The notes beneath the pieces were generated by a model. It was given only the letters and a program-made list of their open reading frames with translations, was not told the origin of the DNA and made no database searches. The position numbers and the translations under genes are program-made. Positions 47,150 to 47,434 of a stretch of DNA of 64,000 bases are shown here, piece after piece (the first letter of the stretch is position 1; each line of letters begins with the position of its first letter). Source of the stretch: Apostichopus japonicus (taxonomy: Eukaryota); assembly GCF_037975245.1 (NCBI RefSeq), contig NC_092564.1, positions 11,423,891 through 11,487,890 on the forward strand. The letters are read 5' to 3'.

Positions 47150-47434
47150 CATCCCACTCAGCAGCAGCTGGTTAGCATATTACTACAATAGGTGTAATAT
47201 AAATAAAGCATTGCTCAGAATACTGCCATGCAGTATTACACTAATGGCCAATCAACAAACGCACTAGTTCGTGCGGGCTATACCATACCTTGAGTAGAAA
47301 TTTGGGATTCGAGATCTTCCAAACAGAGCTGGTTAGCATATTACTACAATAGGTGTAATATAAATGAAGCATCACTCAGAATACTGCCATGCAGTCTAAT
47401 AACAAGTCTATTGGCCAATCAACAAATACCATAC
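47150..47434. repeat. Intronic tandem duplication (about 130-180 bp) that copies the last bases and splice donor of TEP1 exon 47435-47569 (ataccttgagtagaaatt). It creates decoy donors in the intron downstream.
   Basis: ...gctggttagcatattactacaataggtgtaatataaat(a/g)aagcat..cagaatactgccatgcagt...ccataccttgagtagaaatt appears twice (47160-47300 and 47330-47450). Confidence 0.8.

Follow-up and report, generated by a model that had tools for sequence, protein, structure and literature searches.

The TEP1-like gene in this window (the whole stretch of 64,000 nt that was analysed) carries a second copy of one of its own exon-intron junctions. The end of a TROVE-domain exon, here called exon N, recurs in the following intron together with its 5' splice site. 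The duplication is real, with a similarity far beyond chance. It is likely a local tandem duplication spanning the TEP1 junction, of generic origin, of which the second copy is an inert or mildly costly relic. As such, the feature is a further instance of the intragenic tandem duplications that have already been described, leaving the protein unaffected.

Based on its predicted domains, the host gene is TEP1, with TROVE, NTPase and WD40 propellers combined in one gene. Its open frames lie on the minus strand, from ~48.4 kb down to ~13-20 kb. In these frames, Pfam identifies TROVE (E=2e-31 and 5e-20), DUF4062 and WD40 (E=7e-19), and there is a hint of a STAND-type P-loop NTPase besides many WD40 repeats. 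The C-terminal propeller model Beta-prop_TEP1_C scores 40.2 bits against a cut-off of 32. The best named database matches are 'telomerase protein component 1-like' from amphioxus, acorn worm and spider, and the best protein identities are 58% (amphioxus), 63% (limpet) and 75% (mussel fragment). All of this agrees with the initial annotation, which had named the gene TEP1 and delimited exon N correctly.

Exon N ends with ...GAC CCC GAA TTT CTA CTC AAG/GTATGG (Table 1). Across this junction, seven homologues, representing six phyla or classes, read DPEFxLK-(V/L)ALYTRxELNIR with zero inserted residues. Since the homologues are gap-free here, productive splicing skips the whole block, running from 47435/47434 to 45844/45843 and removing the second copy as intron. 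The true acceptor (ttttcttttgttatgtag/) has a strong polypyrimidine tract, with a pyrimidine fraction of 0.86. A shorter intron of 269 nt, with the next exon running from 47167 down, was rejected, as beyond 47168 every minus-strand frame is interrupted by stops and the real exon starts at 45843. The duplication had rightly been assigned to a TEP1 intron, but the scale of that intron had been misjudged, as the repeat occupies only its first ~270 nt, and the potential 40-nt pseudo-exon had been overlooked.

Table 1. Positions of the features in the window, numbered from its first letter (a slash marks a splice boundary)
Feature	Position	Strand	Length or unit	Remarks
TEP1 exon N	47435..47569	minus	135 nt	Phase 0-0; encodes QDFINSVSASLIGQADFHDPTNANRKAISAAFEEVVQFDPEFLLK, TROVE domain; from ORF and splice sites, Pfam and homologue alignment
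Real 5' splice site CTCAAG/GTATGGTAT	47426..47440	minus		Exon end 47435, GT 47434-47433; homologues contiguous here
Whole intron	45844..47434	minus	1,591 nt	Duplicated block at 5' end
Next TEP1 exon	45682..45843	minus		TROVE, VALYTRKELNIR...; acceptor tatgtag/GTAGCA, AG at 45845-45844
Copy 1 of duplicated unit	47452->47324	minus	129 nt	Last 18 nt of exon N, donor, ~106-110 nt of intron; ends CTAACCAG/CTCTG
Copy 2 of duplicated unit	47306->47163	minus	144 nt	All intronic; begins CCCAAATTTCTACTCAAG/GTATGG, ends CTAACCAG/CTGCTG
Spacer between copies	47307-47323	minus	17 nt	TTTGGAAGATCTCGAAT
Copy-1/copy-2 junction				...CTAACCAGCT... joined to ...CCCAAATTTCTACTCAAGGTATGG
Copy-2-only segment	47259-47279	minus	21 nt	AGCCCGCACGAACTAGTGCG+T; 5-bp palindrome CGCAC...GTGCG
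Decoy 5' splice site CTCAAG/GTATGGTAT	47280..47294	minus		Exon-like end 47289, GT 47288-47287
Potential pseudo-exon	47289..47328	minus	40 nt	Acceptor-like CCAG/ at 47329 plus decoy donor
Second acceptor-like CCAG/	47168..47171	minus		End of copy 2
Third donor-like motif CTAAAG/GTATGGTAC	46780..46794	minus		13/15 match to real donor 15-mer; same intron
Tandem array (MARS1 acceptor)	1786-2631	plus	108 bp x 8
Tandem array	3627-5445		122 bp x 15
Tandem array	10603-11009		81 bp x 5
Tandem array	14557-15623		59/118 bp
Tandem array	16599-16922		111 bp x 3
Tandem array	40374-40597		112 bp x 2
Tandem duplication	49002-51864		1,433 bp x 2	99.93% identical
Direct-repeat pair	53.07/53.22 kb		39 nt	53072-53110 / 53220-53258

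On the plus strand, the real exon end and donor read ataccttgagtagaaattt at 47431-47449, and this string recurs identically at 47285-47303, with one change just beyond. The initial annotation had located the recurrence correctly, although it closed the string at 47300. It had also set the upper limit at 47434; the block reaches 18 nt into exon N, to 47452. The copies are adjacent and head to tail in the same orientation, at 146-161 nt from start to start. In a gapped alignment on the gene strand, copy 1 and copy 2 share 116 matches with 6 mismatches and 29 gap columns, i.e. 95.1% identity over aligned bases, with indels of 21, 3 and 3 nt. A BLAST search of the region against the whole 64-kb window returns the pair with E=1.5e-31 and no third copy of the ~145-bp unit elsewhere in the window, giving two copies in total. 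Seed-extension repeat finding resolves the similarity into three co-linear direct-repeat blocks of 69 nt (96%), 19 nt (95%) and 27 nt (96%), the 69-nt block at 47166-47234 / 47327-47395 being the best-conserved part of the repeat. Tandem Repeats Finder (minimum score 30) found nothing in 46000-48500, as the indels hide the repeat from it. In the 5'->3' direction of the gene, each unit is built of CCC(G/A)AATTTCTACTCAAG, which forms the exon tail of copy 1 and looks like exon in copy 2, then the donor GTATGGTAT, an intron body of ~100-120 nt and finally ...TGCTAACCAG/CT.

A related sample appears to have kept a second copy. Contigs of the Logan collection are de Bruijn assemblies built with k=31 and contain each 31-mer once only (PMC12424806). 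Two of them, L001 (SRR23999932) and L002 (SRR23999948), belong to sister runs and represent a related taxon or haplotype, with 93-96% identity to the window. L001, 95.8% identical to the window, passes from upstream through exon N and finishes with ...GACCCCGAATTTCTACTCAAGGTATGGTATAGCCCGC. Its final 31-mer is GAATTTCTACTCAAGGTATGGTATAGCCCGC, which opens at the G separating the exon tail (CCCGAATTT) from the copy (CCCAAATTT), while the other 30 nt (k-1) equal copy 2 of the window exactly. As every 31-mer is unique in such contigs, this break is the one expected where a unique path enters a repeat. The stop at k-1 bases into the shared sequence thus suggests that the second copy of the relative is preceded by a base other than G. 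From this contig end alone, with no contig spanning the junction, we infer that the related sample also carries the second copy. L002 covers the last 44 nt of the distal copy and crosses the same distal boundary (...CTAACCAGCTGCTGCTGAGTGGG...) into the intron. Over these 44 nt, the window copies differ from each other at 1 site and copy 2 differs from the distal copy of the relative at 3, small numbers that hint at concerted evolution or a younger duplication rather than at a simple old one. In L001, the 21-nt palindrome segment (AGCCCGCACGAACTAGTGCG; CGCAC-GAACTA-GTGCG) directly follows the real donor. Therefore, copy 1 of the window probably lost these 21 nt, and the loss is probably a hairpin-associated deletion beginning at intron position +10.

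The same contigs help to judge whether the second copy could be an assembly artefact, with divergent haplotypes of a single-copy stretch stitched in tandem or an error at the read level. The ~5% divergence and the indels between the copies are similar to the divergence between the window and the relative, and this could be haplotype-level in a heterozygous invertebrate. In addition, the public collection lacks the exact ORFs of the window: for its first-exon ORF, look-ups in public assemblies gave no exact match, whether from the stop-to-stop start or from the ATG. However, the independently assembled short-read contig L001 stops exactly k-1 bases into the shared sequence, pointing to two upstream contexts in that sample, whereas a heterozygous SNP bubble would break a contig before the variable base and not 30 nt after it. 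The window contains zero N gaps, the block of ~290 bp is far below the typical size of haplotig duplications, and a 17-nt spacer with differing flanks is unlike allelic copies. An artefact is thus very unlikely.

Given a genuine tandem duplication, the intron contains an exact spare donor 146 nt downstream of the real one on the minus strand, as had been proposed. The decoy is identical to the real donor from -14 to +9, and therefore has equal intrinsic strength. As a donor it is competent for recognition by the spliceosome. The unit also ends in the acceptor-like CTAACCAG/, so the decoy may not only act as an alternative donor but also delimit a 40-nt pseudo-exon that shifts the frame. The acceptor-like site at 47329 is weak, with a pyrimidine fraction of 0.55 compared to 0.68-0.86 in three real acceptors nearby. 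Use of the decoy donor is predicted to lengthen exon N by 146 nt, of which 8 codons (VWYLLIGQ) would be read before a stop, which bears out the earlier expectation that the exon would be extended through non-coding sequence. Inclusion of the pseudo-exon is predicted to shift the frame, with a stop within the next exon. A third donor-like motif lies ~500 nt deeper in the same intron, where shuffled sequences predict 0.15 such matches across the window. The flanks of the motif do not resemble the unit (p = 0.18-0.93). That the intron might be made up of a series of older, now decayed copies was rejected, the comparison of the unit with the rest of the intron giving p = 0.34-0.94.

According to Hodson et al. 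(2012; PMC3413131), splicing in mammalian extracts uses almost wholly the intron-proximal of two identical strong donors 174 nt apart, the distal donor being used if the proximal one is weaker or if U1 is in short supply. By this rule, the TEP1 decoy donor should compete with the real one. Their constructs C174C and G176G resemble the TEP1 locus in having identical donors ~150-175 nt apart (146 nt in TEP1) and one downstream acceptor. They differ in that they carry consensus or globin donors and were studied in mammalian extract, whereas TEP1 has AAG/GUAUGG in an invertebrate with the acceptor 1.4-1.6 kb away. Moreover, the in vitro rule favours the intron-proximal site, while TEP1 function requires the distal (upstream) donor. 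By analogy, either exon-definition signals in exon N would favour the real donor, or some TEP1 transcripts would be lost to premature-stop isoforms. The locus is thereby a natural test case for the choice between identical donors 146 nt apart where in vitro rules favour the wrong one. The only likely effect of the spare donor would be some wasteful mis-splicing.

Decoy or poison exons promote intron retention or nonsense-mediated decay. The TEP1 block resembles them as a short, intronic, exon-like unit with an acceptor-like site and a donor, whose inclusion would lead to a premature stop. Another possibility might therefore be a functional element, the spare donor or pseudo-exon being retained to divert a regulated share of TEP1 pre-mRNA into isoforms with a premature stop or to promote intron retention, thus setting the dosage. 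Both decoy outcomes end in a premature stop, the decoy matches the real donor from -14 to +9, in vitro work predicts strong use of the intron-proximal of two identical donors (PMC3413131), and the second copy seems to be kept in the related sample. On the other hand, the acceptor-like site is weak (pyrimidine fraction 0.55), and selective conservation as in decoy or poison exons was not found: the 1 mismatch in the 27-nt donor block equals the neutral-decay expectation at ~5% divergence, with no excess conservation. The same genome also holds many arrays without apparent function. A regulatory role is unlikely on balance. Neutrality of the block is assumed here; it could be costlier or more regulated.

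The preferred reading, a generic tandem duplication that left an inert or mildly costly relic, is as follows. A local tandem duplication of ~146-161 bp would have straddled the exon-intron junction of the TROVE-domain exon, copying the last 18 exon nt, the 5' splice site and the first ~110-120 intron nt. The upstream copy stayed joined to the intact exon N, so the gene still works, and the second copy is removed as ordinary intron by splicing from the first donor to the acceptor 1.6 kb away. What is left would be a non-coding relic, comprising a spare donor and a potential pseudo-exon, with no coding or structured-RNA role. Using either of them would give a premature stop and a transcript that is presumably degraded; at most, the block would then cost some fraction of the TEP1 transcripts. 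The duplication does not appear to be recent, in view of the ~5% divergence with indels and the relative that appears to carry both copies. As to its origin, we infer generic replication slippage or unequal exchange, the same as for the other arrays with a 60-160-bp period in the window.

One finding counts against a simple tandem origin, i.e. the 17-nt spacer. The two copies of a simple tandem duplication would be directly adjacent (P-U-U-Q), and their breakpoints often show microhomology. The TEP1 spacer aligns with neither flank and, with up to 3 mismatches allowed, matches nothing else in the window; template switching as its source is unsupported, with no template in the window. The motifs CCCAAATT and CTGCTGCT recur just past copy 2, near the positions expected for microhomology. 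Both were spotted post hoc; without constraints, the alignment does not reach significance.

Intragenic tandem duplications in which intron/exon structure is copied have been described by the model of Rogers (1989) and for the potato RdRp by Ma, Lan & Niu (2016; PMC4974935). The latter paper also cites an ATP2A1 case (Hellsten et al. 2011) and reports an 83-bp intronic tandem duplication without change of gene structure. Like these Rogers-type and potato RdRp cases, the TEP1 event is a short intragenic duplication over a splice junction, in which signals are inherited and coding can stay unchanged. However, those cases create a new intron and/or added exon sequence, whereas the TEP1 duplicate just lengthens an existing intron and its pseudo-exon is not part of the conserved protein. 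The TEP1 case does not qualify as intron gain, the conserved mRNA having acquired neither an intron nor an exon. If the mini-introns 47434-47329 and 47288-47168 were spliced out, a 40-nt exon would remain between them and shift the frame. The homologues share the intron position and have a contiguous protein. The locus does offer an example of introns lengthening by duplicating their own ends, with pieces of exon carried along.

A different route by which a donor-like end could come to lie beside an exon is the insertion of a mobile element (MITE, SINE or introner-like). The window is repeat-rich, the relative lacks a 3.66-kb segment just upstream, and introner-type elements carrying their own splice sites are known (PMC9860276). 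The likeness to introner or MITE insertions is superficial, as the TEP1 unit includes coding sequence of the host and has no dispersed copies in the window. Of this unit, 18 nt are conserved TROVE coding sequence (DPEFLLK), and therefore the exon is the source and not an element. The unit is without other copies in the 64 kb, and terminal inverted repeats and target-site duplications were not seen. A composite ORF bait over the unit recovered one contig only from the related samples and no dispersed relatives. Such an insertion is highly improbable.

Introns often host snoRNAs. The 69-nt block, as the best-conserved part of the repeat, might accordingly be a duplicated, intron-hosted small RNA gene (snoRNA or miRNA), the copy of the splice site being incidental. 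However, Rfam gives zero matches in 47163-47452 even at E<=1, and a scan of 45500-47800 at that threshold gave two sub-threshold chance matches only, both outside the repeat. Folding of both mini-intron units on both strands (z-scores of 0.10, -1.30, 0.24 and -2.34) shows no consistent stability compared to shuffles, and the two copies disagree. C/D-box-like motifs, searched by eye, are not common to both copies. A small RNA gene is extremely improbable here. On the plus strand, an 83-codon frame (47016-47264) runs antisense to TEP1 across the distal boundary of copy 2. Pfam gives no match for it, and as bait it recovered its own locus only; it is probably a chance ORF.

The window is unusually rich in tandem repeats with a period of 60-160 bp. 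It holds at least nine local tandem arrays or duplications, only two of which (MARS1 and the TEP1 donor) include a splice junction. The initial annotation had suggested a mechanism acting at exon borders; these counts make a border-specific mechanism unneeded. From the exon sizes, the density of exon borders in these genes was roughly estimated at ~1 per 350-400 nt, meaning that a random 150-bp duplication spans a border ~40% of the time. Duplications that keep one intact copy of the exon would be tolerated. The idea that all window arrays start at exon borders was rejected as well: the arrays at 14557-15623, 16599-16922 and 40374-40597, in TEP1 introns, begin ~30, 20 and 170 nt after donors and exclude these donors. 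Their periods are ~59/118, 111 and 112 bp, respectively. Compared to intronic minisatellites, the period (146-161 bp) and divergence of the TEP1 block resemble those of the window arrays (59-122 bp, 80-96% identity), but the TEP1 block has only two copies and a unit with 18 nt of coding exon and a functional donor. Presumably, it shares a slippage or unequal-exchange origin with these minisatellites.

The acceptor duplication in MARS1, to which the TEP1 case had been likened, is real as well. Each of its eight ~108-bp units comprises a polypyrimidine tract and acag/, followed by the opening 31 nt of the KMSKS exon. This leaves seven intact decoy acceptors (AG/ at 1860, 1970, 2078, 2187, 2296, 2405 and 2492), with the real acceptor at 2600, downstream. 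In both genes, the unit spans a splice junction and intact decoy sites are left in the intron. They differ in that the MARS1 array is on the opposite strand and concerns the acceptor side, with 8 units of a 108-bp period, whereas the TEP1 block concerns the donor side, with 2 units. The two events share a generic process, and nothing more specific is demonstrated. The MARS1 parallel is more striking than the TEP1 case itself, and how the spliceosome skips seven near-identical acceptors there is not obvious.

It might also be imagined that junction-capturing duplications (the TEP1 donor twice, the MARS1 acceptor eight times) are mechanistically favoured at junctions, or are retained as decoys that tune the output of housekeeping genes by unproductive splicing, with the TEP1 decoy intact in at least two lineages. 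This is quite doubtful. If true, the locus would correspond, in nature, to the classical competition experiment with duplicated donors, and the cell would have to override the intron-proximal preference systematically. Taken alone, the TEP1 block is of little import, being one more intronic tandem duplication in a duplication-filled genome. For annotation it is a warning, since the duplicate donor, the 40-nt pseudo-exon and the seven duplicate acceptors of MARS1 can mislead exon calling.

Several other repeats lie in the same window. The 122-bp array of ~15 units at 3627-5445 is located within a MARS1 intron, and the one at 10603-11009 lies between the 3' ends of MARS1 and TEP1. Just upstream of the first coding exon of TEP1, a 3.66-kb segment (48494-52156) is missing from L001, in which the equivalents of 48493 and 52157 are joined directly. 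Inside this segment, the 1,433-bp duplication (49002-50431 / 50435-51864) is either very recent or an assembly issue, given its 99.93% identity. Further upstream, the two members of the 39-nt direct repeat are 97% identical and 148 nt apart. Their location, between the 5' end of TEP1 and the next gene, has the highest GC content of the window (0.42-0.44) and may be a promoter region.
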